This document shows, one piece after another, positions 1-29,924 of a stretch of 29,924 bases of DNA. Each line of letters begins with the position of its first letter. Position 1 is the stretch's first letter. The translations under genes were made by a program, and so were the position numbers. This DNA is from Mayamaea pseudoterrestris (lineage: Eukaryota), in the NCBI GenBank assembly GCA_027923505.1, contig BROI01000004.1, positions 1,240,001 through 1,269,924 of the forward strand. Reading direction: 5' to 3'. A model generated the notes under the pieces. The model saw only the letters and a program-made list of their open reading frames with translations, was not told the DNA's origin and searched no databases.

Positions 1-771
1 GAAGCGCTGTTGACCTGCGACACGGCGTCACAATCGACACCAACGACTGACAATAATAGTATCACCGGTAGTTCCAATGGCGACAATGCAAGTACATCGG
101 CCGGCTCCATCTCGGACGAACTCGCCCGCGCCACCCGCACCAAGCGACTCTGGATGGCGCACGGTTTGCTGCTTTCCGTGTCGTGGGGCATTTTGACGCC
201 CCTCGCCATTGGCTGCAGCGTGCTGCGGCGAAAGCAGGGCGGCACCTGGTTTGTGTTGCATTCCAGTTTGAACAATTTGGTATTTTTGACGACAACCATT
301 GGTTTCGCCATTGCCGTGTACATTTTGGGCAAGGAAGGTGACCAGCACTTTTCTGGAGAGCGACATAACTTATTGGGGCTGTTCGTATTTTTGTTACTGT
401 TTGTTCAAGTCATGTCGGGTTGGTTTCGACCCAAGCTTCCCACGCATGCAGCGGCGGCCCGCAAGACGGTGGTCCAGCCCAACGAGGAGGAAGGTGAACA
501 TGTCGCCACGGACATTGTCTACGCCAATGACCAAGCAACCGCACCAAAGAAGAGTTGCTTGCGTCTCATGTTTGAAATGCAACATCGCATCCTTGGGCTA
601 GTGCTACTGATCCTGGCCTGGTATCAGGTGCACTTGGGCATTGAGCTGTACGAGGAGGAGTTTACGATGAACTTTAACGGCAAGGCCATCTTCTTTGGAG
701 TGGCTTTCACAATCACAGGTTTGATCATTTTGGCCAAGATTGCACTCATTGTACGAAATAGACGTCGCTAA
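1..771 (+). CDS. Cytochrome b561 domain protein (DOMON/CYBDOM-type), 5'-partial
   Basis: The frame is open from base 1. Five hydrophobic segments carry four spaced His heme ligands in typical contexts: AHGLLLSVSWGIL, WFVLH, HNLLGL..FRP, HRILG..LGI. A Ser/Thr-rich linker precedes them, so an extracellular domain probably lies upstream of the window. Confidence 0.85.
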   Translation, partial: EALLTCDTASQSTPTTDNNSITGSSNGDNASTSAGSISDELARATRTKRLWMAHGLLLSVSWGILTPLAIGCSVLRRKQGGTWFVLHSSLNNLVFLTTTIGFAIAVYILGKEGDQHFSGERHNLLGLFVFLLLFVQVMSGWFRPKLPTHAAAARKTVVQPNEEEGEHVATDIVYANDQATAPKKSCLRLMFEMQHRILGLVLLILAWYQVHLGIELYEEEFTMNFNGKAIFFGVAFTITGLIILAKIALIVRNRRR

Positions 772-1180
772 GTGAATGTAGAGTAGATTTACAGTTTGTC
801 ACGTTACTCACTGGTATAGACGATATTGATAGACCAAACGACATAGCATAATTTACATGCATGATCCCTTCAATTTATCGTCATTGCTATGGTTGCCTTT
901 CGTCATCATTCTACCGTATGTGTAGCAAAAGCGAGCGACTTGCTCATTGAGTTATTTATTTTCCTTCGCAATAAATTCGGCCCTCGCCAACCTAGCAAAA
1001 ACGGTTGAGTACCAGTACGATGCAAAACGGGACCCACTTTCGACGGAAATTTCCTTGCTCGAAAACCGCACTTCACCATGGAAGAAAATCATTGACAGTA
1101 ACACAGCGTTCACAACATTTGGACAAGCTCATTTTGCTCGCAGCTAGAGATTAGTGTCGCAGATCAGCCTTGAAGCAAGC

Positions 1181-2716: not shown

Positions 2717-3036
2717 ATGCCCTACGGTAGTTCCCTTGCAAAGAGTGACATTAACTACCGGTAGCTGAAACTGTGAAAAGCGCCAGCCAAACATTAAAAT
2801 GGCTGCAGCAGGAGCAAGAAGCGAAGACGACACTTTATAATACTTGATATCAATAGAATATATGTGTTGTATGATATACATATGTTGCTGGCCAACTCAC
2901 AGTCAACCTAGGAATTCTCCAGCTGCTGCTACTCGAGGCATAGCTGGTATCGCTGCGCTGAACAGGCGACTGTGCTGTTTCCTCGACGAAATTCGAAACC
3001 CAACGCAACGCGGAGGAACGACTCGCGCGTGTCACC

Positions 3037-5034: not shown

Positions 5035-5411
5035 CACATTGTTATCGAGGTATTTAGTCAAGTCCACACGTTCGTTCTTTCAGTTGCATGCCCGAGATGT
5101 GCTAGGATATCGTTGGTTACATTTAGCAAGGAACATAGCAGAGAGTAAATATTTTGTTATCATCGTTTGCGACGAGTCGGTTTATTGGTGAGCTGGCCAT
5201 GACTGCAAAATACTATTTACAACATTTAGAAAGCACTTTAACGCTTTGATGCATCATACTAATCTTCACATCTCGCAATCTTATTTTGTTCTTTAATAAA
5301 TTGGTTATTTCTATGTTAAATTGGATGAACATGCCCGCATGTTCTATTTAAATGCTCCAAAAGTGAGTCTTCGCCAATCTTGCACAAACATGCCCACAAT
5401 CCATTTCCCAC

Positions 5412-7380
5412 CTACTCGTACGTCAATCGAGCCTTTAGAACATCATTCTCCTGACTCAAACCTAAGTTTTGCAATGCGATAATCACAACGCTCATATTGT
5501 CGCGTGTCTCCAGACGCAAGCATTCGTGCAGCAGGTCATCAGCAGCTCGCGCCAAGGCAAAGACATCACCGTCCGCAACGCCCGCTTCCACACGACGCAC
5601 AACGAAATCCGCCACTTGCTCGTTCGACATGACGTCAAAGACGCCGTCGCACGCCAAAACTAGGAACCGATCCGTGTCAGATCGTCGGTGGACAATAATC
5701 TCTGGCATGACGGTGACCGCTTGATCCGTCGCCGGTAGATCTTTGTTGTTTTTGAATTCAAAGTCTCCAAAACTTCGAGACATACCAAGCGAGGAAGTGG
5801 ACAGACCAGTGTATATCACTTTACCGTTAAAGATTTCGATACCGGCCTTGCGAATTCGTGCCTCTTCAACTGGAAGATCCGGCTTGTGGTCAACACTGAG
5901 CGGTTTGACGCCAAACGAAACTGATTTCGTCTCGTCAGTCGCAATGGAAAGCTTGGCCAAAGATTCGCTAAGGTCTTCTTGAGCGGCAGCGCTATGGATC
6001 AGAATGCATCGACTGTCGCCAGCTGTTGGCAATTTGTTGATACGTGTGAGTGATTGTATGTGGCGCGACAGGATTAACAAAAGGTAACGTACCATTCGCC
6101 ACCAAAATCTCATCTTGCGTCACGACAGCAGTGACACACGTACTTCCACCGGAAATGCCTTCTGCTCGTAGCTTATCATCGACTGCGAGGAAAGCCTCCT
6201 CCATGCTCTTCGACAAGTCACCGTGACTCAGACTCTGCTCATTAAATTCGTCAGGCAAATGCTCCGAGACAAACTTGCTCACCAAACCGCCGTCCGCATG
6301 ACCATCGCAAATACCCACAATCACCTTGGTGTCATCCGCATAGGTTATTTTGGCATCCTCCATTTCGACGCGAATGCCCGGCATTTCGGAAAATGCAATC
6401 TGCATGTCGTTCAACGGCGCAACAATGATACGCTCCTCCACCGATCCTTGCTCGCCTATAATACACGGATCATTCAAATCAAACAGCTCCTCCTTGATGA
6501 GATTTTCGTACACTCTGCTTCGCTGCGTCGTTGGTGACAGCAAGCCTTCCGCCAGCGCCGATTGGTTCAAAATATTCTTGGCGTTCAACGGAATTCCAAA
6601 GTCAATCATTCTCTGCTTCAAGTAACTCACAATCTCACCATGTCCCTTGGACGCTGCAATATGCAACGGCGTATGTCCAGAAATGTTGGTTTGCACAAGC
6701 TGCTGGGCGGCATATTGTTCCGGCTCGTGCTCCAGCAGAATGCGACAAGCCACCAACCATCCCTTGTGGCAGGCCGCCATGAGCGGCGTGTACCCATCCG
6801 GAACGACGGCTCCAACGCCAAGCTTATGCGCCATGCGTCCATTGACGAGAAAGTCTGGATTCTGCGCCACCAGTTTGCGCAGCTTTAATTCGTTTCTAGC
6901 GTCAATCTCCTTGGCGACTGGCATGAAGATTTGAAAGAGCTGCTTGACGGGAGCAAGCAAGCGAAACTGCGGCGACTGAATGAGAGCCGTCTGCGAAACT
7001 GCCACGAGAATCTGATTCACAGTCGTTTCGGCGACTGGTGTCTTTGGATTGGCGCGCTTGCTGGCAGTCGTTGGCGTGCTAATGTATCGCAGCTGCTGCG
7101 ATGAGCGAGGCGTCGATGCGACCGCACTGCTTGGAGCGGGAGTCGACTGAATCGACTGATCGAACTGAACTACTGGAGGAGTTGCAACAAATGGAGCGCT
7201 CTGAGTGGGAGTGTTTGCTGCTTCTGCACCAGGCGTCGTCTCGTCCATCTTGTCGCTGGGATTAGGACTGGGAGTGCCGAAACCAACTTCAGAAGCGTCC
7301 GATTCGAGCTGCATCGCCTGCTCGCCACCATTGTCAGATGAAGAGGCAATTTGATCCATCGGCTCGGCCGACTCTTGCAT
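5412..7380 (-). CDS. Ankyrin-repeat protein phosphatase 2C (PPM family), 2 exons: 7380-6093 and 6022-5412 (632 aa)
   Basis: Ankyrin motifs GYTPLMAAC and GHTPLHIAASKG. PP2C motifs RVEMEDA, DGH, DHKP, MSRSFGD, LACDGVFDV and DNMSV. Removing the 70-nt GT..AG intron at 6092-6023 restores the conserved ANAGDSR motif in frame. Confidence 0.93.
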
Positions 7381-7965
7381 CCTCGAAAAATCACTTGTTC
7401 AATACCGTCGATATGCTCTCCCAGATGGTGCAGAAATATAATGAAGCGTCGGGTGGATGGATGTGTGGTTTTGGCGATGGTCGTCGTTTTGGATGAGAAG
7501 AAAGCTTTTAATGCCGCATCAATGTTTAGCTACTTTGTTGCTGTCTGTGCAAGGAGAGCGTTAACAAGCTTGAAGGACATGCTAGAGGCTTAAAGGCAGT
7601 AACAATTACCAAGACGAATACCAAAGTGGTTAAACAAGAGTATCATACTTCATTGAGTTTAAATTGTCCACATGTGCCGCAGCTTCAAAACCACAGGTTG
7701 TGTGCATGCTCGAGGCGAACATTTCATGCAGCAGCATGATTGCAGTCTCTATTATTGTACTCCATCACAAATATGTTCCGTCAATGACTTGTCTTATTCG
7801 TGGCGAGGGTGATGTTTGATTGGTTTGTTGGTAATAAGGTGTGCTGAGCGATTGAAAGGCATACCACCGTAGCTGCAGCACAACTACTTTTCCGCAGAAT
7901 TTCAGTAACATATCAATTATAGACTTCCACTAAACGTAAGTGCGAGTCATTCTTATTTATCTTAT

Positions 7966-8830
7966 TTACTGCTTACTAGCACTACTCTCCTTTGCCTTTT
8001 GCGCCTCCAGTGCCCGACTCAGTTCCTCCAGCGCCTTGCAGGCCTCGGCGGCAGCCTCCTCCACCGCGCACTCGTCATCCGAAAGGCCCCCGCCCAAACT
8101 GTTTTGCAGACCCGCCGATGCAATCTCCTCGACGACATCCCACGCCACCTTGGCGTCGGGACTGGTGGGGCCTTGCTCCTGCGAAATGCGCTTGGCCTCG
8201 GCCAGTGCGGCGCGGAGCTCGGGTGAGTCGGGTGCGGCCTTTCCAGTGCTGCTCGACATTTTGAGTTTGATCGAAGCCATTTCATCGGCGACAGCTTTCA
8301 AGCTGTTGATTTGTGGCGTCGTCTTGGCTAAAACCTGCGCCAGCTCGTCGAGCTTGCTGCCGTAGTCGACGCAGGCCTTGGAGATTTCCTCCTCCACGAG
8401 GCACTCCGTGTCGAGGGAGGGAATGTCAAAGGCGTTCTTGCTGTGTATGCGAATGAAAGAGAAAAATGAAATATAAAGGTGAGTGATATTTATAAGAAGG
8501 TAAAAAACGTGTAGCAGCTTTTGCCGTAGATTCATTCTATATACACTCTCATTCATTTTCAACAAATCCATTTTCATCATATACTTACGCATTGTTCGCC
8601 GCACTCAGTTCTTCGACATTGTCCCAGGCCACGGCCGCCTCGGGACTGTGGCTTCCAAATTCCTTGGAGATGCGCATGGCTTCCGCAATGGCGGCACTGG
8701 CGTCCGGGCGCTGCGTCGTGGCATGCAGGCGTGAAGCAGATGGTCGAGTGGTTGACGTAACAACAGCAAAGGCAGATGCAGATGAAGCAGCTCCAGATAA
8801 TAGGATAAAGGCAAGAGTTGACTTGATCAT
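7966..8830 (-). CDS. CP12: Plastid-targeted CP12-domain protein with two CP12 repeats, 2 exons: 8830-8589 and 8440-7966 (238 aa)
   Basis: Signal peptide ending ASA|FAV. Two CP12 cores (AAVAWDNVEELSA and AKVAWDVVEEIAS), each followed by a Cys pair. A 148-nt GTAAGT..CAG intron (8588-8441) joins the two ORF-track pieces in frame. Confidence 0.88.
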
Positions 8831-9131
8831 GGTATGTTTGTGTATATAAGAGAGAGAGGTTTTGGTTACGTCGTTTCGATTTTTGAAAATGGGGCCGCTG
8901 AACGAGTGAACGAGTGGCTTCGTCGGCATTCTGCTCGAACGACATGGAAGATCAAGCGACGTCTGTCGAAAGATCCAGCGAGCGCTAAAGAGTGACATAC
9001 TGTCGCTTTAGTGTAAGACAGCTACTCATGAGCGCACTTGTGCATGCCGAAACGCTCGACCATGGAGAGAAACGTCACAGCTGCGGCTTGATCCAAAACA
9101 CACCAGCGACGGCCAGGTCAGAAGCTGCACC

Positions 9132-10376
9132 ATGGCAACGAAAGTTTCCAAATCCTTCCAACTAATACTACTGCTGCTAATTTCGATAGCCTTTGATCAA
9201 GCATACTCATGGTCTGCCTGCCATATACAATCGCATTGCCGCTTTCAGCAGCGTCAATATCGGAACGAGCGTGACCGACGACGACAAACATGCCAATCTT
9301 CTTCACAAGACAATTATGAGCCTTCTGCAATGAAGGGGCGGGCTGCCCAAATAGCCGGCGTTTCGCTATCGCCGTCTGGTTTCTACGTCCTGCTGGAATG
9401 TTCGGAATCGGCATCATCCAAGAGTAGCAGCAATGATAACAACAATACACTCATTCTACCCATTCAAGTCACCAATGACTCGCGCGACGTTCATCAAGCG
9501 TCCAGTCCCCAGGCGTTGACGCTGCTGCAGCTGCTGGCGGCGCCTCTACCAGTCGACATGGCGGGTCCAGTCTTTCCCGTGGAAACGCTCACGAAACTGA
9601 TTGTTGTGCAGAGCGACTTGGAAACGAGTACCAACGAGCAAGAATATCAAGAGCAGCAGCATCCAATCATAAACTATTTGCAATCAAACATTGCCCAGCA
9701 GCTGCAAAGTCGCTTCAACGTTTCCGATTCATCGTGGCGCTACAGTCAGCAACCCGATTGGATACAAGCTCGCCTGTCGCTGCCTCTATGTTCGCTCCAT
9801 CGAGTGCAGCTACACGTACACAACGATAGCATGATTTGGTACTTGACGGTGCGAGCGCTTGACATGCCAGTAGCGTCGTCATTGTCAAGTTCATCAAGTA
9901 CCTCTACTTCTACATCTACATCTTCAACAGCAGCATTGTCATCGAACAGTTTGACGTTTGCTCCCAGCGAGCAAGCATTGCGTCAAGTCGTTTGGCGCGA
10001 CGACGAAACCAACGACGAACATTGGAATCCGCAGGTGGCAGCCGCCTTTACATGTTTGGCACTCGCCCTGCGCTACAAGGCGCCCATATTCTTGACGCAG
10101 TCACCTGATACAGCGAGTCCATTCATTTCCAAATCCGACGTTTCAACTCACTTTCCACTATACAAGAGCCAGGACGAGCTGGTGCAAGCACCAACACGCG
10201 TCCACCGCAACATTGAAACGGGGTTTGCCATTCACAAGCTGCAGGCAGCCTTGCAACTGGCCATGCAGAAAGGCGATGTTGCGGCGGCGCACAAGATTCG
10301 TGCGCGTTTGGACGAAATGGATTCCATGCAAGACTTGCCCGTGCAGGCGGAACATGATTTGGAGAATATGCAGTAA
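9132..10376 (+). CDS. Bifunctional nuclease (DUF151/BFN)-like protein with C-terminal UVR-like helix pair, probably plastid-targeted
   Basis: Signal peptide ending AYS|W. GFYVLLE..LILPIQV resembles the BFN N-terminal strands. CLALALRYKAPIFL resembles the BFN motif DAIALALRxxxPI. LQAALQLAMQKGDVAAAHKIRARL resembles a UVR motif. Confidence 0.6.
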   Translation: MATKVSKSFQLILLLLISIAFDQAYSWSACHIQSHCRFQQRQYRNERDRRRQTCQSSSQDNYEPSAMKGRAAQIAGVSLSPSGFYVLLECSESASSKSSSNDNNNTLILPIQVTNDSRDVHQASSPQALTLLQLLAAPLPVDMAGPVFPVETLTKLIVVQSDLETSTNEQEYQEQQHPIINYLQSNIAQQLQSRFNVSDSSWRYSQQPDWIQARLSLPLCSLHRVQLHVHNDSMIWYLTVRALDMPVASSLSSSSSTSTSTSTSSTAALSSNSLTFAPSEQALRQVVWRDDETNDEHWNPQVAAAFTCLALALRYKAPIFLTQSPDTASPFISKSDVSTHFPLYKSQDELVQAPTRVHRNIETGFAIHKLQAALQLAMQKGDVAAAHKIRARLDEMDSMQDLPVQAEHDLENMQ

Positions 10377-10807
10377 ACAAGGAGACTGGCAAGTTGCAAT
10401 TTGCGCGCGCGGAGATTGCGTTTGAAGGAAAGGAAAATGAAGGTTATGTCAGAGCTGCAATACTGACTATCCAACATGGCGGCTTGTGCGACGCGCTTGG
10501 CGACCGTCGCTCGGTCGCTCCACAAATGAAGAATGCTTATAATACTATAGAATACGCAATATTATGAATTCTTGTCTTGTTAGCATAAACTCAACGATCG
10601 TCTTGCAGTCGAGCACTAGCACGACAATCGGTTCGCGTATGATAAGCTAATCACGTAGTTGCAAAGTCCGTCATGGCAAAAGTGCTGCTAGGCAATATTT
10701 GTTTGCAACGCAGCAGACCTACTTTGCCGAAAGTAAGTTTTAATGAAACGTACAAACAATCAATGAAAACTATACTAGCATCTATTGTTAGCATATGCGC
10801 ATCTTCT

Positions 10808-12451
10808 TTATGCGAAAACGTCGAGTATATTAGAAATGGCCCAGTTCAAATGAGCACGCAACTGGCGGGCGGCCGGTAGTTGCATGTCTCGAGGCACACC
10901 GATCCGGTCCCGCATGTAGATCAAGCTATCAGCTACTCCATTCACATACTCTTGCCCGCCTTTTTCTGCAAATAGCTTGGCCACTTGACTTATGTTTGCT
11001 TCTTGCTCAACAGTTCCTTGTAAAAGCGCCAAGCACACGATCCGCATCGCAGCATCCACACCCATCATCACTGCCTCACTCGGCGACGCGTTTGGATCCG
11101 CCAACGGAGCCGACACTGGCGGCATGCCCTTTTTGCCTGCACCACGCGACGCAAACTTGACGATAGCTTCGTAATTGGCGCTGACGCGCTCCACCGCCTG
11201 TCGCTTGGCCGTTGGTGCGTCGCATCCGGGCCAACTCCAGTCGGGTTCAACATTGCCATTGTGCGCAACCAGTGGCAGCTCCCAACTACCGGGCGCTTGT
11301 CCGTCAATGGCGTTGCGAAACGGCTCGCCGGCCGCTTCACTCGCACAACCGCCCAGCTGCGGCGGCAAGTCCCAATTGTGCGTATAGTAGTCGGACTTTG
11401 TCAGTTGGTAGCTCGGCAACGTTTCCATAACATCAAACCAGCGATTAATGGCGGGATAGTCGGTGGGTTGGCTGGGTGTCACGCGCATCACAAAGCCTTT
11501 CAAGTAAACGACGGAAGCGGCCATGCGCTCCAGAAACGGAGCAAAGTGAACGTCGACCATGGAAATTTCACGGCCGAGGAAAAAGGGACCTTTGACTGAC
11601 AGTTGCTCCTCCACTTGGCCAAGCATTTCAATAAAGAGCTCCTTGGAACTACTCGATGTTCCTCGTATCCATTGAAACCACGGAACAAACAGGTTTCGCT
11701 CCAGTCGCAGCAAGGATTCCGCTTGCTCCTGGTCACGCTTCGACTGCGGCTGCAACGACTTGTGGTCTGGAAACGCCTTTTCCAACGCTTCCAGAATGTC
11801 ATTGGATTGTCCATACACTTGATTGTCAATGATTGCCACTGGTATTTGACCGCTCGGTTGCAGTCGCATAAAGTCGGCAGGTTTGTTGCCGTAGCAGCTC
11901 ATGTTGATTTTAATGACCTTGTAGGGTATCTGCTTTTCCTCCAACGCCAGCCACACTTTGTGGCAGTAGGGACACCAGCTGGCGCTGTCGCGATAAAACG
12001 TGACGCGAATGTCACGGGGCTGGTACTTGGTTGCGTCGTATAAACGCGTCAAATGGAGGGGGCTGCCGACGCCAACGCCGAGTGCAAGGTTGCTGCGAAA
12101 GTGGCGCTCACTGTCAGTCTCCATCATGCTTTCCAACGTGGAGCGAATGCTGGACCATGATGGAAGGTCTGAAAGCTCATGCTCCAATGCTTGATCGACC
12201 TTGACATGCGCTTGCGTTAGTTGATTCGACGACGATGAAAACAAGGATGCCGCCATGTCTTGAAAAATGTTCGAGTCGTCCTTGCGAGGCGCTGCTGCGT
12301 GCAGTGTCGTCGGGTTCGATGGTTGCTGTAACCTGGAATGAACGTGTATTGATTTCGGGGAAAAGCCGGAAGCTAATGAAAGTGTCAGGAGAAGGGCGGC
12401 AAACATCATGATTCTCCACCAAGCGGTTCTTGCTGGCTCATTTTGTGCCAT
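10808..12451 (-). CDS. Glutathione S-transferase family protein (Cys-dependent, CPYC), probably plastid-targeted
   Basis: GST-N motifs WCPYCHKVWLALEEKQIPY, GQIPV and SNDIL. GST-C motif GPFFLGREISMVDVHFAPFLERM. Presequence LLLTLSLASG|FSP. The start ATG is either 12451 or 12409. Confidence 0.88.
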   Translation of the reverse strand: MAQNEPARTAWWRIMMFAALLLTLSLASGFSPKSIHVHSRLQQPSNPTTLHAAAPRKDDSNIFQDMAASLFSSSSNQLTQAHVKVDQALEHELSDLPSWSSIRSTLESMMETDSERHFRSNLALGVGVGSPLHLTRLYDATKYQPRDIRVTFYRDSASWCPYCHKVWLALEEKQIPYKVIKINMSCYGNKPADFMRLQPSGQIPVAIIDNQVYGQSNDILEALEKAFPDHKSLQPQSKRDQEQAESLLRLERNLFVPWFQWIRGTSSSSKELFIEMLGQVEEQLSVKGPFFLGREISMVDVHFAPFLERMAASVVYLKGFVMRVTPSQPTDYPAINRWFDVMETLPSYQLTKSDYYTHNWDLPPQLGGCASEAAGEPFRNAIDGQAPGSWELPLVAHNGNVEPDWSWPGCDAPTAKRQAVERVSANYEAIVKFASRGAGKKGMPPVSAPLADPNASPSEAVMMGVDAAMRIVCLALLQGTVEQEANISQVAKLFAEKGGQEYVNGVADSLIYMRDRIGVPRDMQLPAARQLRAHLNWAISNILDVFA

Positions 12452-12624
12452 GGTGGAAAGCTCGCTCATGGATCGAGTGAAGTTGAATGTCGCATCGCAA
12501 CCCAAGAAATATCGTAGCGGTAATGGATCATGGGACGTCCTTTCATCTTTCCACCATGGCACAATCCATTTCCTTGTGCGAATCATTTACTCTACTGTAA
12601 CAAACGTTATACAATCTACAACAT

Positions 12625-13236
12625 ATGCAGCAGCAGCAAGACCAAGATAGCCCGGCGGATGAATGGCTGGCGTCCTTGAATGCAACGTGCAATCGCTTCT
12701 CGACGCAGTACCTGCAGCTGATTCGATCCGCCGCTTCGGCTCCATCGTCAGGAGCAGGCGAACATGACGGACGATCCGATCCAAGAGGTGAGACAAATAC
12801 TAGTATTAGTAATGTATATGAAATTTTATGATGGTCTAGAGAGTCCTTGTGCAGGTCTCATTTCTATCTTACGCTCGCTCACGTTCCATCCTTTCGCCTC
12901 ATCTTTATAACATGAAAACATTTGCACCCCTACTTGCAACAAACAGCTGGAGGCGGTCACATGATGTATCTACACGATCCTCCACCACCTCCACTTGCCG
13001 CGCACGTTGCCCATTCGTCATTGAGCTGCCAATTGGCGGCGGACAATTTATGCGTCGCCGCCAGTCAGTTGCTGTCGTTGATTCGAACGCTGCGACTCAG
13101 TCTGCTGCTCATGGACGCCGATACCATTGACGTGGAGCAGCATCAACAAGTGCAGCAGGCGCAGCGAGACACTCAGCGAGCCTTGGAGCAAGCGGCGCGG
13201 CAAATGCTCGAGTTGCTGCAGCGACGGCAAACGTGA
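12625..13236 (+). CDS. MED22: Mediator subunit 22-like protein, 2 exons: 12625-12787 and 12947-13236 (150 aa)
   Basis: A GTGAGA..CAG intron (12788-12946) joins two short ORFs in frame. The helix FSTQYLQLIRSA and CQLAADNLCVAASQLLSLIRTLRLSLLLMD match the Med22/Surf5 pattern, followed by a coiled-coil tail. Confidence 0.75.
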
Positions 13237-13326
13237 GAGACAGATGAACATTCTCAGCTCACAGCAATACTATATATACATTAAGTATTATAATTCTATT
13301 CTATGCAATTTCTGCCGCATAATATC

Positions 13327-14871
13327 CTACTGATAGATGGACGGCGCGACGCGTTCCCACGAGCTGCGTTGAAACACGGTCTCATCCAGCTTGGAGCATT
13401 GCAGACTGTAATTCTTTTCCAGGTAGCGAAAGGTTTGCTGATTGGGCTGATGATGCATGATACTCGTCGCAGCATTGCCATGCGCAGCCTCCATCACGTC
13501 GCGGCTCAACAAGATCTGCTCGCCCCGCACCATAAAGTTGATATCTTCGCGCAACTTGTAGTAGACTTCGTTTTCTGCGATTGGAAGACCGGAAAAGAAG
13601 CAAAAGCGCATGTACAGCTTCCAAACACGCACGTCGCGAATCTCCAATGGCAATGTGATGAACTGGTTCGGATAGAGAATTTGCATTTGGTCCAACAAGT
13701 GGCGGTCGGGGAGAGGTAATCGTCGCATTAGTTCTTGTCCACTGGGTGAGCTTGGATCCGCACCGCCGTCAAGGCTTCTTGACGAAAGGTCGTCGTGGCT
13801 TGTCAGCGGGCTCGTCGACATTTGACTCGTGCTCGCAGTGGACAATGAGCCACTCCAATATCGACGTGAAGTCTTCTTCTTCTTCGTTTTGTATTTGTAA
13901 ATGGCGTCGCAAACATCAATTTTGTCAGACGCCGTACCAACAGTAGAATCATTCGAGTGACTGCACATGCTCGTCTTGGCTGGTAGTCCCAGTGCAGACG
14001 GCAAGCAAAAGACAACCATGGTTCGCATATTCTGACGAAGGCAGCCAGCGTAAAACGGCGTGCCAGCGAATATAGGCTTGCCACTAAAGTAGCAACCACG
14101 GCTGTCTCCTGGCCCGTCCTTTGGTTGCTTGGCCCCCACGGCGTAGAACGCCATGCGACGATGGTCGGGCATGGTTTTCGAGCCAGTGGATACGTGACTG
14201 GATGGCAAGGTAAGCTCGCTAATGTTTCGTTCCAGTTCCAGCATGTCGCAGCTTACTTCCATGGAATGCGGCATGGCAGGCGTGTTGGAACGCACAACGC
14301 TTGTTCGAACTGCAATTGGAGACTGGACTTGGACTTGGACTTTGCCGTCAAAGTGAACTTCAATGTCATCGTGATTCTCCCAATCGCCTCCGAACAGCAG
14401 CTCCGCTTGTCGTTGCTTTTGTCGGTGGCGCTGAATCCTCCGGAGCCGCGGCGTTTCAGCTGTATCACTTGCACTTTTTGCGTTTGCCAGCTCCTCATCA
14501 CCAGGCGCCATCATTGGAGATATGCCTAGCAGGGTGACTGATTGTTGGCTCCCGCCAAAGCAGTTGCATGGATTGGTGGACATCATTCGACTGGAAAAGT
14601 AGCTGGCCTTGTCGCGCGCCAGATCACAAAATCGGCCAAATGGGGTCAAGCCATTGCGGAGCTTGCGTTCGTCAGTTTGTCTTGTCGACTCTTTCCATGG
14701 ACTCGATCCAATAGAGGAGCTAGATGCGCTGGTTTCGCTCAAATCGGTGCCGTGTTGCTTGGTAATTGCAGCCCCGCCTAGGCAACTCCACGATGAACAA
14801 GTGCAGCCGTCTGTCATGAATGAAGGCCATGACAGCTGATCGATCATGGTAGTAACTGTTTTGCTGCCCAT
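13327..14871 (-). CDS. Hypothetical protein (Ser-rich N-terminus; two C[YF]FSGxPI motifs)
   Basis: Long ORF with first ATG at 14871. Disordered N-terminal half and a globular-looking C-terminal half containing CYFSGKPI and CFFSGLPI. No family recognised. Confidence 0.75.
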   Translation of the reverse strand: MGSKTVTTMIDQLSWPSFMTDGCTCSSWSCLGGAAITKQHGTDLSETSASSSSIGSSPWKESTRQTDERKLRNGLTPFGRFCDLARDKASYFSSRMMSTNPCNCFGGSQQSVTLLGISPMMAPGDEELANAKSASDTAETPRLRRIQRHRQKQRQAELLFGGDWENHDDIEVHFDGKVQVQVQSPIAVRTSVVRSNTPAMPHSMEVSCDMLELERNISELTLPSSHVSTGSKTMPDHRRMAFYAVGAKQPKDGPGDSRGCYFSGKPIFAGTPFYAGCLRQNMRTMVVFCLPSALGLPAKTSMCSHSNDSTVGTASDKIDVCDAIYKYKTKKKKTSRRYWSGSLSTASTSQMSTSPLTSHDDLSSRSLDGGADPSSPSGQELMRRLPLPDRHLLDQMQILYPNQFITLPLEIRDVRVWKLYMRFCFFSGLPIAENEVYYKLREDINFMVRGEQILLSRDVMEAAHGNAATSIMHHQPNQQTFRYLEKNYSLQCSKLDETVFQRSSWERVAPSIYQ

Positions 14872-15579
14872 GGCGTGGTAGTTATTGTAGTGTAATGGGC
14901 GATGGCTTGCCGTTTCTAGGATCCTCACGCAAGTGACTCTTCCGTCGAAACACAAATGGCGGCCTGCGATGGGCCTGGGTCGCTTGCTGCTGCGTGAAGG
15001 CAAAGCAACTTATTACTCGGACCTAAGTTCCATACACACCGGAGACGCATGTACAATGAAACAGCTTTACCTTAAGACATTGCAATAAAAGCAAGCAGTT
15101 CCATTTTGACGCGTAAGCGCAAAAGGGTTGCCGTTTCTGCGACGAAAAAGTGAGCCACTCTCTAGCGTTCCGCATGGCAGGCATGTAACGATGACTCACT
15201 AAGTAATTTAAATTCCCGAACGCTGCAATCGACGATTCGCCCGGCGCGCTAGAATATTGGATGGAATCTTCGTCCACAATTTCTCGCTCCACGACCTGGT
15301 TGCAGGTTCGTCGTTCGGATCAGTGCTCCAGCTTGAACGGATAACAAGCAAGCTTCCTTCACTTGAAAGTACGCGCATTCGACTACACAACGATTTGAAT
15401 TAGTAATAGATGAGGTGCTGTCAGGGCAGAGCTGTGTGTGTGAGCATCATCCTTCACCGTTCACCGTCCGCCTCAAAATGGATCAAGCGCGCGATTCAAA
15501 TTGCCATCAATAAAAGAGATACTCTATGAATCAAAAAGCTGTAGCAGCATTATTGGACCTCGATTCATGACATATTTTT

Positions 15580-16464
15580 ATGGATACGCGAAATGTACGA
15601 TGCTCGCCCATCAATGCCAAAAACGTCATTGCGACATCATCCACGCTGGAGCTCGAGCTCACCGCAACGTTGAACGCCAGCAATCCACCACACGCTCCAT
15701 TATACACAACTATGATGCACCCAGACGCCATGAGTCTACAAACTGCAACTTTTGACAAGGAGGAAGATTTTGACGATGTCGAGCTGGCATCTGCCAAGCA
15801 GCAGCAGCAGCAGCAGCAGCTCACTGCCGATGATGACGCTTCGCACGAGACTTGCTCCTTGTCCGTGCCCGACGAATCCGAGTTGTTGCGCATTTATCGC
15901 ATCAAGTATCGCGTCTTTCGCGATAGCAAGCTCAAGCTGTGCAGCGACTCGCCGTACGATGTCATTGTCTGCAGCGAAAGCAAGGATGTTTGGTCGACGT
16001 TTGTCTTGAGTCGAGTGAATCACGAAGCAGACGATATCATTGCAGCTGACACTCAAATTCAGGCGTTTGAAGTGACGCTTTCCATGAGCCCGCTCCAGCG
16101 ACAGGTGGCCAAGGTCGGTTGGATTGCCAAGAGTTCCGTCGCCACGTACGATGGATCGACAAGCAGCCACATGGCAGTCATTGCGCGAGACACTGACATG
16201 GTGGAGAATGCCAAGACGTTTTACATCATTTACAATGGCATTGATCGAAGTGTTGCTCCAATTGCAAACGTTGACGCAGTCTGGGAGCAAAGAACGATTA
16301 ACATTCGTTGCGTGCTGCACGAAAAGACTTGGATGGTAAATGGCAAGTTGCTCTACACGGACGACCACGACTGGATGCAGGAGGCCAATGGATCCGAGCT
16401 GCTGCCTCTAGTAAAGATGAACCAAGGCTCCTTTTCGTTTACGCGGATTGAGCTTGGCGATTAA
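15580..16464 (+). CDS. Hypothetical protein (poly-Q N-terminus, beta-rich C-terminal domain)
   Basis: 294-codon ATG ORF with host-like composition, a (CAG)7 tract, and an AT-rich 3' flank. No family recognised. Confidence 0.65.
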   Translation: MDTRNVRCSPINAKNVIATSSTLELELTATLNASNPPHAPLYTTMMHPDAMSLQTATFDKEEDFDDVELASAKQQQQQQQLTADDDASHETCSLSVPDESELLRIYRIKYRVFRDSKLKLCSDSPYDVIVCSESKDVWSTFVLSRVNHEADDIIAADTQIQAFEVTLSMSPLQRQVAKVGWIAKSSVATYDGSTSSHMAVIARDTDMVENAKTFYIIYNGIDRSVAPIANVDAVWEQRTINIRCVLHEKTWMVNGKLLYTDDHDWMQEANGSELLPLVKMNQGSFSFTRIELGD

Positions 16465-17839
16465 TATTAAAGGAATGGACGGCCTTATTCTCGAGGGTCA
16501 TGTACTCATCGTTAGTGGGCAATATTCTTGTGACATTTACCTGTATATGAGATATAGAGTAATATACAGTTTCCATAGTCAAAGACTGTTTTCTACTCAT
16601 ATTTACGTCTGCAGCCGTTCCAAATGTCAATTTTATTGCAGGCGGATAGCTAAATTCAACGTGGATCTTTGAAGGTTGACGCACGTTCCGTGACGGATAG
16701 ACCTGATCTCTAGGAAAGCTGGAATTGTTCCTTGTCCTAGCAAGCAGACTTAACCACCGGAATGATTTCAAACAAATGTGCACCAGCAATCAAAGAAGAG
16801 CCACAGTGGACATTCAACATATTGATGTCGAAAGTAAGCTGGAGTAGTGGGGCAAGTTGGCAGCAATCCAGCTAGCGTAACAAGGCCGGCTGCCGCCGTT
16901 GGCACTGACCCAGTCTTGGGTGTTTGGATGGCAGGTTGGTCTATCAGTGGTGATTGCAATGGATAGGCACCTCATTTACTGTTCGCATGAGATAGCGGTT
17001 GGGTAGCTATCCACTTATTGCCAGCATGAACTAGCGGGATCTGTTCGCAAGAGATTATTGGTGCGCTGTTTGCAACGGTTACGTAGCTGTCCGACCTAAT
17101 GTATTGCAGTGGGTTACGCACGCACAGATGCACTCACATGCAAAACTTTAACTCACTGAGCCCATTCTGGGTCAGTGAAAGTTGCAACTGGACTGTACCC
17201 AATTGGACTATACCCAACTCCAAGCCTGAAGATCTCAGGACTCAAAGCAACCTCTTCATAAACATCCAGTGAAGCTGTCTAAAGGTCTTTTGTAGTAAAA
17301 AGTTGCAGCGATGGTTGTCAATGACATGCGACGCTGCTTGCCAGAACCAAACGGCTGGTTCGTTTTGAGTTGTTTGGAAAATAACTGACTGTGGATGCCT
17401 CCACACAAGTATACCTCCTTATAATCTGGTGCACTCAGAGCATAGGGAACCTTTTGGTAAATGAATACCTTCAGTGAGCATGAACTTATCATGACTGCAT
17501 GGGCAGCACTGATTGGCAATGGCCAATTCGCAGTCAAACTCAGATCTTATGGAGAGTTCTTCATTATCCATCATGTAATGTGCGTTTTTGCTTTCATTGA
17601 CTTGCCAGAACCATGCTGCTGCGCATCTCATGTAGCCTCTTGTCACATACAGGAAAGGGAAGATGTTCTATAATCACTGACCCGTACAAAGTAGGGTCCA
17701 ATGAGTACACAGTTTCTCGTGTCTGTCTGTCAAGATATCTGTGCCTCTAGGGTAATGAAACTTCAACAGGCAGAATCCATTGGAATGGTAAATGTCACAT
17801 TGGCGCATTACTTCAAACAACTATAAGGACTGCACAAAG

Positions 17840-18375
17840 CTGTACAGTGCCATAATATAGGAAGTAGGTACATCCATGTACTATCAATATAATATTGACT
17901 GGCCCTAGACTACAATAGCAGACTTGAAACTGTACAGCAACATAGTGTAGGAAGTAGGTAACATCCATGTACTATTATTGACAGGCCCTAGACTACAATA
18001 GCTGAGCTACCATCAAATCCCACCAGTGCATTACATGCAGAGGTACACATTTATCTACTCAGCTATAAGATACGAGCCATTGGGAAAGGAAGAGCTACAG
18101 TCAGGCCCACACTATGAAGTGCAGTGCTTCAGTCCAGCCCCACACTACCAGCAGCAATGAAAGAGGTCTTAGGAGTTTATAGAGCTACCATCCAGCTACC
18201 AGTATGACTATGGAGACAAGCCCTATGCATACAAGCTACAGTCAGGCCCCATTGGTACTCTACAAGTAGTAGATCTACATCAATATCTCAGTACAATATT
18301 AAGGAGCTACCATCCATATTATGGAGAAAGGCCCAGCACTACAAAGGCAGAGCTGCAGTCAAGCCCTACACTACA
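17840..18375. repeat. Degenerate tandem/subterminal repeat array
   Basis: Two ~90-bp-period copies (17840-17919 and 17930-18002) share TAGGAAGTAGGTA, CATCCATGTACTAT and GGCCCTAGACTACAATAGC. Beyond them, GAGCTACAGTCAGGCCC and GAGCTACCATC variants recur near 18005, 18091, 18181, 18234, 18303 and 18350. Confidence 0.75.
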
Positions 18376-23122: not shown

Positions 23123-23477
23123 CTCCCCTCAAGTCATACCTAATAGTTCGATTCCTTGAAGAGCAGGTTCTTTAAGTGCTTGCTTGCCATAGCCCGCGGA
23201 AGAAACTTTGGTAAGTACATCCACTGCGTTTGTCGTCGTTCCCATGATGTGGTTGAAATTAATAATTCCCGCCGCAATTGCTTCACGTACATGGTGAAAT
23301 GCCAGTGCATTGTGTCCCGTCAGACTAGAGTGTGGTAAGTTGCTACTTTGCGTTACCAACTTGTTGCCTCCAAACATCCATGAGGGTCCATCAAGCGGAA
23401 CTCCCAACATGCGTAGAGTGAAGCGAAGATCCATGATCTGCTCCGTGCTCACTCTTGCTGCTACAAACTCCGAGCCG
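23123..23477 (-). mobile_element. Ty1/copia element C: decayed RNase H C-terminus plus PPT, interrupted at 23477/23478 by element A
   Basis: GSEFVAARVSTEQIMDLRFTLRMLGVPLDGPSWMFGGN...HNALAFHHVREAIAAG...VDVLTK is the copia RNase H domain. The catalytic DN motif reads GN. Similarity stops abruptly at the TG of the next LTR. Confidence 0.9.
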
Positions 23478-23806
23478 TGACACAATATTATTGAGTTGAG
23501 TTGACCTGCGTCTCATGACAAGACGGTTAGCTACCTGTGTTTTGTATGCATTTAATCCTGTGCAGGGTTGAGTCACACTTGTGACCGAATCCTCACATAC
23601 ATGAGTGAAATCGCTGACGATCGAGGCGTGAACCTCGACCGTGAACCCAGTGAGAACGAGAAAGAAGCGCACGAGTAGAGTAGCGAGTAACATGCACTAT
23701 TCTAGCAATTGAGTTTGTTTGTTTGCTTTACGCTGGACGAAGAGGTTGATCGCTCCTAGTCCATTGTAGTCGCTGGAATAAAGGTTCGTCTGATATTATC
23801 GTGTCA
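23478..23806 (+). repeat. 5' LTR of copia element A (329 bp)
   Basis: Starts TGACACAAT exactly where the RNase H breaks and ends ATCGTGTCA (8/9 inverted match). AATAAA at 23777-23782. Followed by a leader and gag. Confidence 0.75.
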
Positions 23807-24025
23807 GATTAACAGTCTTGCTAGCTTGTCTTGACCTGAGAGAGCTGTGCGAAAGAGAGAGAGTGAAAGAATCGAGAAATTGAGAGAGAAAGAGCAGATT
23901 CCTTGCGGCGTCGTCAATCCGAATACTTGGCACGAGCGCGTAGAACAGGATCGTATAAGGCTCGACTGCATTGAGAGCGGTTGTTGTGTGAGAAAGGACT
24001 TGCGGAAAGCGAGGTATTCACTATC

Positions 24026-26870
24026 ATGGTTGCGATTACTGCGGAAGCTTTGCAGCTTCTCTGCACGAACGTTTTCGGACGAGACATCCAAGAAGCGTTC
24101 TTGTTTTGGAATGTAACCACCACTACCCAGATGTTGAGATTGACCAAGGAGCAACTTGAAGCCCCCTACTGGGTCGAAAGATCCGCCATCCCACCAGGCG
24201 AAGACCAACCTGGAGGCGCGCAACCCGACGATGCGCAGCCGGGCGACGAGCCGGCCGACGAACCGGCCGAGGAACAAGCAGCCGCCGCCCCAGTACGATA
24301 CGAAACGACACTAGCACCAGTCTACGTGAACCTTATCCTCGATGCATGCGAATGGTTTAACATGCACGACGGACCCCCGAACACCAGGAAGTGGGCGTTG
24401 CTTGATTTAGGCAAGCTCGAGCGATTCCAAGAGATACTCGCCGAACAAGAAATCGGTCGGAAGCGTGAAGAAGGATACTACGTCCTCGAGTCCAAGAAGA
24501 AGCAAGCTGAGCTACTTGCCAAGCAACTCGTAAATGAGAATATCAAGGCTGAGAAGGCCGAAAAGGAAGCAGATGCCAAGGGTCGTTTCTCGAACATCAA
24601 GACGAAGCGAGATTACAAGGACTACAAAACGTTCCAACATCCCCACGCGTGGTTGAGTTGGAGCGCGTCTACCAAGGCAATCGCCAAGCTCCATGGCTGT
24701 TCTAACGTGCTCGACAGCAAGTACGTACCAGTCACGGAAGAAGAGAAGGAAGAGTTCGAGAATCAGCAAATCTTCATGTACACTGCGTTTCGCAATTGTC
24801 TCGAAGTCCCTGGACACCAGTCGCTCCTAATGAAGCACGGTGACAAGTCCGACACTCAGAGCGTCTATCGCGAACTCGCGACCAAGTTTGGTTCTGGCGA
24901 GTTAGCTACCATCCAAGCAAACGAACTGCAAGCCAAGCTTGCGACGATTCGCCTAGATTTGACCTGGACGAAGGGACACTACAAGTTCCTAAACTACATC
25001 GAACAGCTCATGAAGAATCTCGAAGAGTTCCGTCCTGGAGTGACGGATGACAAGAAGAAGTACTACTGGCTCCGAGCTGCAGTGGAGGGCGACGAAGAAT
25101 TCGGTCCCACGTGCACGACATTCGACCAGCACTTGACATTTGAACGACGACGCATCATCAACGCAAACGGTGACCCAGATGCCGTCTTAACGGAAGATTA
25201 TGACTATCTTTTCGACATGTTGTCGCAGCAGGCTCTGCGCGTCGACAACAAGAACGCCAAGCTGAACAAGGGCAAGAAGAACGCCGACCGCCAAGCGAAC
25301 AACGCGAACACTTCCGGGCAAGGACGTGGTAATGGGCGCAGTTCCGGCCATGGTGGAGGACGCGGCGGCCAAGGCGGACGCGGCGGTGGACGAGACGGTG
25401 GACGTGGCTCCCAATCGGGCCGCGGTTCCGGAGGACGAGGCTCTTCCGCGCCACTACCAGCAGCTGGGACGCAAGCGCATCGGGAACGATTCCCTGGTGA
25501 TTATCTGAACTTTGAACAGTTGTTGCAGGCCCCTGAGTACATGTATAACGACTCGGCTGACTTAACGAGGACGAATACGCTCAGCTCATGGCTCGACGCG
25601 AAGCCATCCCAAGACCCGCCACAACAAGACGCGTGAACAATGGGAACCGCGCGAATAACCAGCAGTCACAAGCGGCTGCTTCGGTGCCTGGTACAATCTT
25701 GTATCAGAATGATGCTGTCTCGATCGCCCCGACGACAGCCACTCAAGGTGCACCGGATGACATGATTAGATCTTTCCTTGCGAACGCCGCGTCGTCTCGC
25801 ACTCAAGCTGCGAATAACACCCAGCAAGAGTTTATGGGAAGCGACGGCCATCGGTACCGCGCAATGGTATCGGTGCGCTACACTGTGAATCGAGCTCGCA
25901 GCAACGAGACCCGCCAAGGATCGCTGATTGACGGCGGTGCAAACGGTGGACTCGCTGGAAGCGATATGAGAATCTTGAGTACTACCAACCACACGTGTAA
26001 CGTGACAGGTTTGAGCGACCACACGGTTCGCGACCTCCAAGTCGGAACTGGCGTCGCATTGATTGAGACTCGGACTGGACCCATTATCGGTCAGTTCAAC
26101 CAGTATGCTTTGTACGACGGTGCTGAATCCATTCATGCTCCATCGCAGCTTCGTTCGTTCGGCCATCTGATCGACGACATGCGCGCTCCCAGAATGGAGC
26201 ACAAGCCATTGTCACCAGTTGTGGCAAGACCATCCCCTTGGCGATCCGTGACGGCTTGCCTCGTATGGATATGCGTCCACCGACGGACGCAGAGTTGGAA
26301 ATGTATCCGACGGTCATTTTCTCTGCGGACACCCTTTGGGACCCGGCGGAGTTGGATAATGAATGGAACGAAGAAGAACTTGAGTTTAATCGTCGCTTCG
26401 ACGAATTGGAAGAAAACCACGGTTTCGTCGACGCCCGCATGGATGACTTCGGCGACGCCACCTACCGGAACAACATGAACTCAGTGGAACGTGTGGTGCA
26501 GTATGTCGATCGCAATCAGGCTGATACGACGCGCCAAGCCAATGCACGACGCATCATGCCACAAGAACCTGACTACCAAGCGCTTCGACCCTACCTTGGC
26601 TACTCGCCACTTGAACGAGTCAAGCGCACAATTAAGAATATGACACAGCTTTTCCGTGCATCGGCACACACCCCATTTCGCCAACATTTTAAGTCGCGAT
26701 TCCCTGCCGCCAATGTGGCTCGTTTCCATGACAATACGGCGACAGATACCTGGTTTTCCAAGGAAGCCACCTTTAACGACGGAATCCGCGGTCATGGCGG
26801 ATGCAAGATGATGCAACTGTTCGTCGGCAAGAAGAGTCTGCTGACGAGGGGATACCCACTGAGAACCGAG
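24026..26870 (+). pseudogene. gag-pol polyprotein of element A, with frameshifts at about 25560 and 26180 and truncated by insertion
   Basis: ORF-track pieces 23981-25636, 25588-26478 and 26238-26939 join with one missing base at each junction, giving ..SADLNEDEYAQLM.. and ..IDDxARSQNGAQAIVT.. Confidence 0.85.
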
Positions 26871-27271
26871 TGTCACAATGACGATCTAGTCCAGTCGCTT
26901 GACGCGAACCTAGACGTCGCCGGGGGCGCGCGAGCATAGTACTCGAACCTCCGTTGCGGTACCAGAAAAGACATCTACTCACAACTACGTCATTGAAATA
27001 TTGCATGTGTGCCAGCCGCAGGCACGATTAAACAAGATTAGTATTCACTATCGTGAATGGTCTTGAAAGAGCCATCTGATCAATCGCTCTTTCTCGACCG
27101 ATCGTAAATCAACTCACTTTCTAGAGAACTGCTTAATCAACTAGCGTTTTGTAGGATAAGACCCCTGTAGGATAAACCAAGGTAAAGGACTGATCATCCC
27201 GCTCACTTGGAAACCGACTACAGAGGGTGAGGAATCGTTGCAGCCGTACGAACTGGAACTGCATCGTGTCA
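26871..27271 (+). repeat. 5' LTR of copia element B (401 bp)
   Basis: Starts TGTCACAAT at the integrase breakpoint of A and ends ATCGTGTCA, the same 9-mer that ends LTR A. Confidence 0.72.
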
Positions 27272-27520
27272 GATCACACAGTCTTGGTCTTTACAATCAA
27301 CTCTCTCGGGCGCTGGTGACGACCACTCCCGTCGTTTCGTTGCACACTACATTGGCAGCGGACATCCCTCGTTCATTTCCTGTCCGAGGCTTCAATCTAC
27401 AATAGTCCGGCAGACGGAGGGATTGAAGACCGAGTCGAATTGCAAGCATCGCTCGGATAGAATCGACTTCCTCGATTATTCTCGCGGTATATATTCATCC
27501 CGTACCAATCAATCAACAAC

Positions 27521-29924
27521 ATGACCGTCGTCGAAGATGATCCTCCCGACGGACCCAATGTCACGCAAGATGACGCGGAAGACAACTTGCTCGCCGTCGG
27601 ATTGAAAAGCATTTACAAGCTGAAGACCGTCAACAACGACAAGTTCATGAAGCTTCCAGTCATCGTCGCCATCAAGTCACTCCTCCCGGACGGACGCCTA
27701 CTCACGGAGCCATTCCTAATGCTGACCATCAAGGACATCGAGTCGGTACTGAAGGAATCCGAAACCCACATCACGGTTATTCGAACCATTACCCGTCTTC
27801 GTCAATGGGCATCGGAAGAGCGCGAACCCAAGGAATGGGTGATGCTCACACTCGCCGGACTCATCAAAGCGACTGAATCGCCCGAAGAGTCCCTATTCCA
27901 AAGCGACATGAGTCGGATTCAACGAGTCAACTCGACGGACGTTCCAGAGAAGTCCGATGCCGAGAAGTACAAATCTCGAGTCCGAGTCGACACCAAAGCA
28001 TACACCGAGTTCAAAGACGAGTACAAATTCCGTCAATGGTGGCTCAAGACGTTCGCAACGGCCAAGAACCAAGGCATCGAGCGAGTCTTCGATCCGGATT
28101 TCAACCCGACAACGCTTTCGCCCGAAGATCTCGAGGTATTCAAAGCGCAAGAAGCCACAGCATTCGACATCATCACTTCATACTGCAAAGTCGCCAACTG
28201 CATCCCGATCATTCGTCGCCACAAGGACGGGTCGGCCCACGAGTGCTTCAAGGAAATGCACAAGATGTACTTGACGGGCAAGAACGCCGAGCGCAGCGGC
28301 GAGCGAGTCGAGAGTTCGCGACATGAAACTGACGACGAAACGACCACGGCAGCAACACTGCGTGGTTCACTCAATGGGAGAATGCCTTGCTCGATTACGA
28401 AGATTATACCGGCGAAACAGTCCCCGACGCGACGCGCAAGAAGTGGTTGTCCGAATCGGTTCGCTGGAACGATGCCTTTCGCCAAGAAATCAGTTCGGCG
28501 AGTCGTATCCTCAACGCACAAGGTCAAGATCAAAGCTTCGAAGACTGGTACAAGCAGCTCATCGAGTTCGCTCGCGATACCGACGACGTCAAAGCGGCAC
28601 GCAAACGCCAAATGAAGATCCACCAATCCATCCAACAAGCAAGTACTCCACCGACCGGAGGCACTCCACCGACTAGCGGCAACACTCCAAGCAGCAGCCA
28701 AGGCGGAAACGGTCGTGGAAATGGCAGCGGACGCGGAACCGGTCGCGGTTCTGGACGCGGCGGTGGACGTGGCGGCCGAGGTAACTTCGGACGAGGTGGT
28801 GGACGCGGACAGTGCACCAATCCTTCTGCAGCATCGAACCGTCGAGTCGAACCGGATGTATGGTTCTCTTGGACGGAGGAGCAACGCGAAGCTCACAAGG
28901 CAGAAACTCGCCGAATCCGAGAAGCGGAACGTGCGCGCCTGCAGCTGAACGCAAGCCAAGCCAGCACGAACAACACTAATACACCACCAACTCCACAAAT
29001 TCAGCTTCCACCGGCGAATACGACGGCGATGTCAACCATGTCGGCGATTACTCAGCCTACAGTCGGAACTACACCAGCACGTGGAACCGCCATGCGCGCG
29101 TTTCAGTCTCAGCAACAAGGCTCGATCGCTCAAGGAAGCCAGCCATCTACTCCACCAGTGTATCAAGCACGAGTTGGCGACGTTACATACAACATGTATC
29201 GTGCCAATGCAACCAACGTCACGCGTCGTTCTACAAACCATGTCGCTACACATTATCCCTCGCCAGATGCGCTTATGGGTATGAATACTCCGGCAACCGA
29301 AGGGCCACGCGTCACAGTTCCATGTTACTGCGTGCAATTACGCGCCTCGAAGCCCGTCCATGATGGATCGCGGTGCCAACGGTTCGATCGCTGGTAAGGA
29401 CATGATTTGCTTGGATCGATCGACGACTCAGTTCGCCGACGTTACCGGAATCGACAATCACATGATGCAAGGACTACCCATCGGAACATTCGCCGCCAAG
29501 ATCTGGACGACGGAAGGGTACGTCATTGGCATTTTCTACCAGTACGCCGACGGAGGAACCGACGCGACCATTCATTCGGTCGTTCAGCTCGAGGACTTCG
29601 GAAACAAGGTATTCGACAAGGCAAGCGCACTTGGCGGACGGCAGCTCATGATTACACCCGAAGGAGCATTGATCCCATTCACGGTCCAGAACGGTTTGGT
29701 CCATTTGAAGATGCATCATTTCACCGACGCCGAGTTCGACACATTGCCGCACGTCGTCATGACGGCAGACACGCCTTGGGATCCGTCAAAGTACGATGGA
29801 GACCTTAATGACGATTCGATTCAAGCGGAAATTGAAGCCGCGACGGACGATCACGAAGCGCCAACACTACTAGTCAACAACACCCAAGTCAACGGAAACG
29901 CGCAAGACGAATATCCCGAAGACC
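27521..29924 (+). CDS. gag-pol polyprotein of element B (3'-partial; frame breaks at about 28310-28360 and 29240-29320)
   Basis: ORFs 27521-28615 and 28387-29397 plus the protease frame open from 29285 to 29924. CpG-rich and otherwise intact-looking, so the breaks may be assembly errors. Confidence 0.75.

Follow-up and report, generated by a model that had tools for sequence, protein, structure and literature searches.

Hemivirus primers, as described in passages of PMC1181622 for Drosophila copia, yeast Ty5, Volvox Osser and Drosophila 1731, start cDNA synthesis from the 3'-OH of nucleotide 40 of the tRNA. The element at the centre of this study, A, resembles these systems in being of the Ty1/copia type and in having, abutting its 5' LTR, a putative primer-binding site that would pair with an anticodon stem-loop and predicts the same primer end, C40. 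The comparison is one of sites, and whereas the hemiviruses use initiator tRNA-Met, the site of A points to tRNA-Asn (AAC opposite the anticodon GUU).

Half-tRNA priming with tRNAs other than Met is already published for Arg, Ile and Lys; the mechanism is known, and it is the Asn version that is new. The fungal element FunCo1 has an internal tRNA-Lys site, ATTAAGAGTCT, which, as given in part of PMC5445492, differs from the core found here, ATTAACAGTCT, only at the base opposite nucleotide 34. Here too the comparison is one of sites; the tRNA is Lys rather than Asn, and the host belongs to another group. Candida albicans elements with LTR gamma and those of the short-match class (e.g. whio) carry sites homologous to a stretch inside tRNA-Arg(UCU), according to passages of PMC4139406, and thus share with A an internal site for a non-Met tRNA, albeit Arg instead of Asn and in yeast hosts. 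The plant Ty1/copia lineage Bianca is assigned half of tRNA-Ile, a half-molecule of a non-Met tRNA as here but Ile instead of Asn, and Osser, Bryco and Gymco-II are assigned half of tRNA-Met; in passages of the same survey, tRNA-Asn is listed solely for sites of the 3'-end type (2% of elements; PMC6317226).

The CoDi elements of diatoms (Maumus et al. 2009, PMC2806351) are likewise of the copia type and belong to marine protists. In the main text of that paper the word tRNA does not occur, the single 'PBS' is a buffer and no primer site is described. Neither an Asn half-tRNA site nor a primer site of a diatom copia or CoDi element was found in a literature search of open-access papers and a few supplements. 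There was none in passages of PMC3601003 and PMC3587641 and no match in the main text of PMC3155517 or in one supplementary file of PMC4247016, and a string search with the motif and its complement returned no retroelement paper by title. Table S3 of PMC4247016, on tRNA fragments, is described as including 9 'D loop/anticodon' fragments, which may be relevant to the fragment discussed below.

Here we analyse a stretch of 29,924 nucleotides, the window, in which the sequence directly following the LTR of A is most likely a hemivirus-style half-tRNA primer site using tRNA-Asn, with a primer that would end at nucleotide 40.

Nested copia-type elements in the window

Three copia-type elements lie nested in the right third of the sequence (23129-29923), an older element C being split by A and A in turn being split by B. 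Their features are as follows.

23129..23477, minus strand: RNase H end of the older copia element C; the translation matches the C-terminus of a long homologue (P0005), and contigs show C uninterrupted
23478..23806, plus strand: 5' LTR of A, 329 nt, TGACAC...GTGTCA; printed termini, left edge from contigs
23807..23820, plus strand: putative primer-binding site of A, GATTAACAGTCTTG; complement of tRNA-Asn(GUU) positions 27-40
23975..25636, plus strand: gag frame of A, ATG at 24027; Gly/Arg-rich tract, no CCHC knuckle and no Pfam match
25561..26478, plus strand: protease region of A with the motif LIDGGANGG at 25924; long homologues align to it in their own protease part
26127..26870, plus strand: N-terminal part of the integrase of A; six long homologues; cut off by the insertion of B
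26871..27271, plus strand: 5' LTR of B, about 401 nt, TGTCACAATG...CATCGTGTCA; inserted in A
27272..27286, plus strand: putative variant primer-binding site of B, GATCACACAGTCTTG; similar variants in related loci
27461..29923, plus strand: gag and protease frames of B, frame-shifted; protease motif at 29360; running off the window

The left edges of A and B are confirmed as true insertion edges by contigs from three sequencing runs (X1-X3). For A this follows from contigs that continue the flanking C uninterrupted beyond 23478, without A; for B, one contig continues the integrase of A past 26877 without B and another carries B from 26868 in a different context. The 10 bases at the insertion point of B (26868-26877) are common to the B-free copy of A and to the copy of B elsewhere, and the start of the B LTR, TGTCACA, coincides with native A sequence at the target, which may be microhomology or chance. 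In the same three runs a contig joins the start of the A LTR (23478) to position 23397 on the opposite strand, so that those genomes hold an A-like copy in a C-like element at another place or in another orientation.

Up to the insertion of B, element A has the order gag-protease-integrase. Its integrase frame has six long homologues with 35-43% identity, three of them with PF07727 (RVT_2), and all six run on to RT and RNase H. This is the domain order of the Ty1/copia elements (Pseudoviridae), with the RT seen in the homologues and that of A itself lying beyond the window. The protease of A is frame-shifted relative to both the gag frame and the integrase frame. With these two frame shifts and the split by B, A is a dead copy, and the site it carries is a relic of the priming mechanism. 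A Pfam search of nine frames of A, B and their neighbours gave 0 families at E 0.01 or better, and a search of viral contigs for loci related to the protease frame of A gave 0 loci. Both gag frames contain Gly/Arg-rich, RGG-like tracts (25341-25419 in A, 28691-28808 in B) and are devoid of a CCHC zinc knuckle; these tracts may represent a different solution to the need for a nucleic-acid chaperone.

The remainder of the window has a different character. Positions 1-16464 hold host genes in long open frames, encoding a cytochrome b561, a UDP-glycosyltransferase, a PqiA-like protein, a PP2C phosphatase with ankyrin repeats, a CP12-domain protein and a GST-domain protein. CP12 is a regulator of the Calvin cycle and would fit a photosynthetic eukaryote. 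A non-coding region (17837-18351) contains dispersed direct repeats of 33-34 nt, in 2-3 copies with 82-91% identity.

A conserved motif directly outside the LTR

The 5' LTR of A starts with TGACACAATATTAT and ends with ATATTATCGTGTCA; it has TG...CA ends and inverted termini, which match at 12/14 positions when counted by hand. No second copy of the A or B LTR is present in the 29.9-kb window, the 3' LTR of A and the target-site duplication lying beyond it, and the end of the A LTR was set from the inverted termini together with related elements that have LTR pairs. Among the contigs listed for the three runs there was no break at either LTR end, and a second A LTR was not seen. In a further run (X5) the summed contig depth was ~23,000 over 23494-23787 and ~1,200-4,600 further inside, a measure that cannot rank the parts of the element. 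Positions 23798-23825 (ATCGTGTCAGATTAACAGTCTTGCTAGC) thus comprise the last 9 nt of the LTR (with its GTGTCA end at 23801-23806), the motif and 5 further nt. TGG is absent from the 60 nt after the A LTR, and A does not have a canonical primer site for a tRNA 3' end.

The LTR bodies of A and B do not align. Their junctions share only the LTR end ATCGTGTCA, followed by GAT, two or three bases and ACAGTCTTG. This 9-mer occurs twice in the window, both times just past an LTR end (23812 in A, 27278 in B), where 0.40 matches are expected and two were reached in 4/100 shuffles. The site of B keeps GAT and ACAGTCTTG but has a C opposite nucleotide 37 and one extra base.

A site that stays the same while the LTRs differ also speaks against self-priming of the Tf1 type, in which the site would pair with the 5' end of the element's own transcript. 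A candidate complement does exist in the A LTR, where CAAGACGGTTAG at 23519 is complementary to the site at 10/12 positions. This score was, however, reached by 30/300 shuffled LTRs, and the best complement in B (8/12) by 300/300. With both scores near the shuffle background, and with LTR bodies that are unalike between families while the site is fixed, which self-complementarity would not predict, we rejected self-priming as very improbable.

To place the motif in a wider context, we used 78 related copia loci from metagenomes (480,147 nt), found with an integrase/polyprotein alignment. The 11-mer GATTAACAGTC occurs exactly on the coding strand in 37/78 loci and on the other strand in 0, with about 0.11 expected per strand; the count itself selects on the motif, and it is the tests of strand, position and LTR pairs that are independent of this selection. 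In all 37 loci the 11-mer follows an LTR-like end, the two preceding bases being CA in 29 loci, TA in 7 and AA in 1. It lies 1,661-2,996 nt upstream of the protease motif in 24/37 loci, a range that includes the distances from the primer site to the protease motif in A (2,117 nt) and B (2,088 nt). In the other 13/37, the locus lacks the start of the protease, or its contig begins within the element and the motif follows the pol end.

The carriers and A fall into 29 families by their flanks. Only the last ~6 nt of the LTR are alike between them, and outside these six bases no flank position exceeds 0.7 bits; that the core is invariant in the same flank table is circular, the loci having been selected on it. 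The motif is conserved over a large and diverse family. Of the 41 loci without the exact core, 10 carry a variant no more than 2 edits away at a comparable junction and most of the others are short fragments. Among 14 loci of >6 kb that lack the exact core, four (L061, L086, L087 and L127) show nothing recognisable as a site where an LTR-like end occurs. As for the hosts of these elements, Bacillariophyta is recorded for 1 member of one Atlas cluster, a weak hint. In many families (e.g. L071, L081, L083, L105 and L118) we noted by eye, 10-40 nt past the primer site, a short inverted repeat through which downstream sequence would pair with the site's 3' part or with the next bases.

The preliminary description of this DNA had noted that its reading would fall if the motif belonged to the LTR itself. 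Only two loci, L065 and L135, have a second LTR copy other than a duplicate of the whole junction, and in both the motif falls beyond the LTR, the two copies stopping at the same (C/T)A. Those of L135 end alike in GCGTGTCA, one being followed by GATTAACAGTC and the other by unrelated sequence, and in L065 the copies end in GAGTTCA-CA and GAGTTCA-TA and then diverge.

Being outside the LTR, the motif is no integrase end site. This bears on a more general alternative, namely that the motif is a cis signal of the element itself (for dimerisation, packaging or integrase contact) which resembles tRNA-Asn by chance. Conservation alone names no partner and would be compatible with such a signal, but the Asn loop and the stem pairs next to it are matched by the conserved block at every base, the arm completed from it is part of a tRNA-Asn gene in most of its matches (see below), and its variable triplet lies where tRNA stems vary. 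We therefore regard a chance resemblance as unlikely.

The position of the motif is also relevant to a second alternative, in which a tRNA-Asn, possibly full-length, binds via its anticodon arm as an accessory contact in packaging or annealing and priming takes place elsewhere. The TGG triplets 14 and 43 nt after the LTR of B would be in line with this idea, as would the insertions that several relatives tolerate inside the motif. On the other hand, A lacks such a triplet in the stretch given above, the motif abuts the LTR end in 37/37 loci, exactly where the 3' end of a primer must sit, and the downstream flanks are not conserved between families. An accessory role thus appears improbable to us, and a primer-binding site is the reading that we pursue in the following.

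Correspondence with tRNA-Asn and pattern of variation

The reverse complement of GATTAACAGTCTTG has the form of a 5-nt stem strand, the 7-nt loop CTGTTAA and TC, corresponding to positions 27-40 of tRNA-Asn(GUU). We completed it to a full stem, giving a 17-mer hairpin, and searched for it in viral contigs. The arm was found at 57 loci. At 46 of these (including L015 and L052, whose contig names are those of giant-virus MAGs) the match is covered by a tRNA-Asn(gtt) called by ARAGORN, at 2 (L045 and L047) by another tRNA and at 9 by none. The predicted arm is therefore a real tRNA-Asn arm in nature, as seen in tRNA genes of viral contigs only; ARAGORN called no tRNA genes in the window and none in the 78 metagenome loci.

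In the tRNA-Asn genes found, the five bases before the stem end in AGCG, GGCA or similar. The preliminary description had extended the pairing by GCTAG, of which only the G next to the stem fits these genes, so that the duplex comprises 14 bp. It could reach up to 16 bp if the last A of the LTR paired with U41 and the C after the site with G26.

The identity of the tRNA can be read from the triplet opposite the anticodon. A regular-expression count over the family gave AAC in 38 hits and every other triplet in at most 3, with TAC (Tyr) and AAG (Lys) at 0; on the opposite strand AAC occurred once in the same count. This dominance of AAC argues for Asn, and the triplet is not the ATG of an initiator-Met site. 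It also weighs against a primer made from half of another tRNA, such as Tyr (GUA), Lys or a further ANN-reading tRNA with a similar arm. There are reasons to consider such a primer, as a single mismatch separates the site from a Tyr-type loop and the fungal copia site that differs by one base has been assigned to tRNA-Lys (in the part of PMC5445492 cited above). The triplet in the family does not follow either of them, and the one locus with AAT (L130, a C-to-T change opposite nucleotide 34) would still pair with G34 as G-U. We therefore consider another tRNA hardly credible as the primer, and a Tyr half, for which the family offers 0 hits, was rejected.

A single string in L073 (327-339, CAGATTATGAGCC) corresponds, in the frame of the Asn motif, to the complement of an anticodon loop of the Met type (CAT). 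Located upstream of the main element of that contig, it may be due to chance or to a neighbouring element with a Met half-tRNA site.

The earlier interpretation is thus supported in its central part, namely a primer-binding site of a non-canonical type that mirrors the anticodon arm of a tRNA and fits Asn rather than Met, given the lack of TGG after the LTR, the 46/57 arm matches within tRNA-Asn genes and the exact core in 37/78 related loci. Its Tyr alternative, its GCTAG extension and a proposed link to stress, which we return to below, are not supported. It had also assigned A to the CoDi elements of diatoms, an attribution for which the Atlas cluster offers the one hint, as to the host.

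Within the site, the bases opposite tRNA positions 30-40 are fixed in the 37 exact-core loci, which were selected on that core, and the three bases opposite 27-29 vary (GCA in 13 loci, GTA in 9, TTG in 8, TCG in 5, ACA in 1 and TGA in 1). Stems of tRNAs vary at the positions where this triplet varies, and the variation of the site fits the pattern of tRNA conservation. In a protease-integrase tree (FastTree on a query-anchored alignment, read without support values) members of the TTG class and of the GCA class each turn up in several clades, and A and B are far apart yet both have TTG and share one genome. Thus, the triplet classes do not simply follow descent, as would be expected if the triplet followed the stem of the host tRNA-Asn.

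Other variants are less easily accommodated. Insertions of 1-3 nt between AACA and GTC are found in L090, L092, L093 and L097, single-base insertions in L073 and L076, and a C or a gap opposite nucleotide 37 in B, L085, L088 and L119, while every variant seen retains GAT. These insertions and nucleotide-37 changes, which concern B and about ten loci, are not accounted for by a simple 14-bp duplex.

Proposed priming by a tRNA-Asn half and its implications

We propose that GATTAACAGTCTTG would serve as the minus-strand primer-binding site of a Ty1/copia-type retrotransposon, pairing with positions 27-40 of a cytoplasmic tRNA-Asn(GUU). The duplex would take in the anticodon stem's 5' strand, all of the loop C-U-G-U-U-A-A, and U39-C40. 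Copying would proceed leftwards into U5, with the 3'-OH of the primer located at the partner of the site's first G. Because minus-strand synthesis runs into U5, the 3' end of the primer must pair with this first base, which makes it C40, and since a full-length tRNA cannot provide such an end, what is needed is a 5' fragment made by a cut within the anticodon stem. The primer would accordingly be a 5' fragment of tRNA-Asn produced in the hemivirus mode of copia and Ty5, with Asn replacing initiator Met. The site has the layout of a half-tRNA site, in that it directly follows the 5' LTR, is complementary to an anticodon stem-loop and ends at nucleotide 39/40. From this we infer that the host has a tRNA-Asn with this arm, that a cut fragment ending at nucleotide 40 is formed and that this fragment acts as the primer.

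The preliminary description had gone on to suggest that such priming links stress-induced tRNA cleavage to retrotransposition. Stress-induced tRNA halves are typically cut in the loop, and the primer end required here is at nucleotide 40, in the stem; the suggested link found no support.

More tentatively, a widespread clade of protist copia elements, comprising at least 29 families, may prime from a 5' fragment of tRNA-Asn(GUU) ending at C40, and half-tRNA priming might depend on the loop type of ANN-reading tRNAs, a generalisation that we put forward as possible but rather doubtful. To our knowledge, the half-tRNA primers known so far all read ANN codons; with Asn added to the published cases (initiator Met, Ile, Lys and Arg-UCU), every half-tRNA primer would then do so. 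These ANN-reading tRNAs (initiator Met, Ile, Lys, Arg-UCU and Asn) carry U36, t6A37 and A38. A dependence on this loop type could lie with the nuclease that produces the fragment; alternatively, t6A37 could halt plus-strand copying of the primer after nucleotide 38. Such a stop would explain why GAT is kept while the base opposite nucleotide 37 drifts, as it does in B and the three loci that share this change (L085, L088 and L119).

On a practical matter, tools for LTR annotation usually seek complementarity to tRNA 3' ends and would therefore call elements of this kind primer-less or misplace their LTR ends. The 11-mer following a CA or TA end offers a simple marker of the 5' LTR boundary for this clade in protist genomes and metagenomes. 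Furthermore, positions 27-29 of the host tRNA-Asn are predicted to be mirrored in the three bases that follow the core, which could help to assign environmental elements to their hosts. With the elements described here, tRNA-Asn would join the short list of half-molecule primers, as the signature of a large family and not of a single copy, and the ANN pattern of the half-tRNA primers provides a mechanistic lead.
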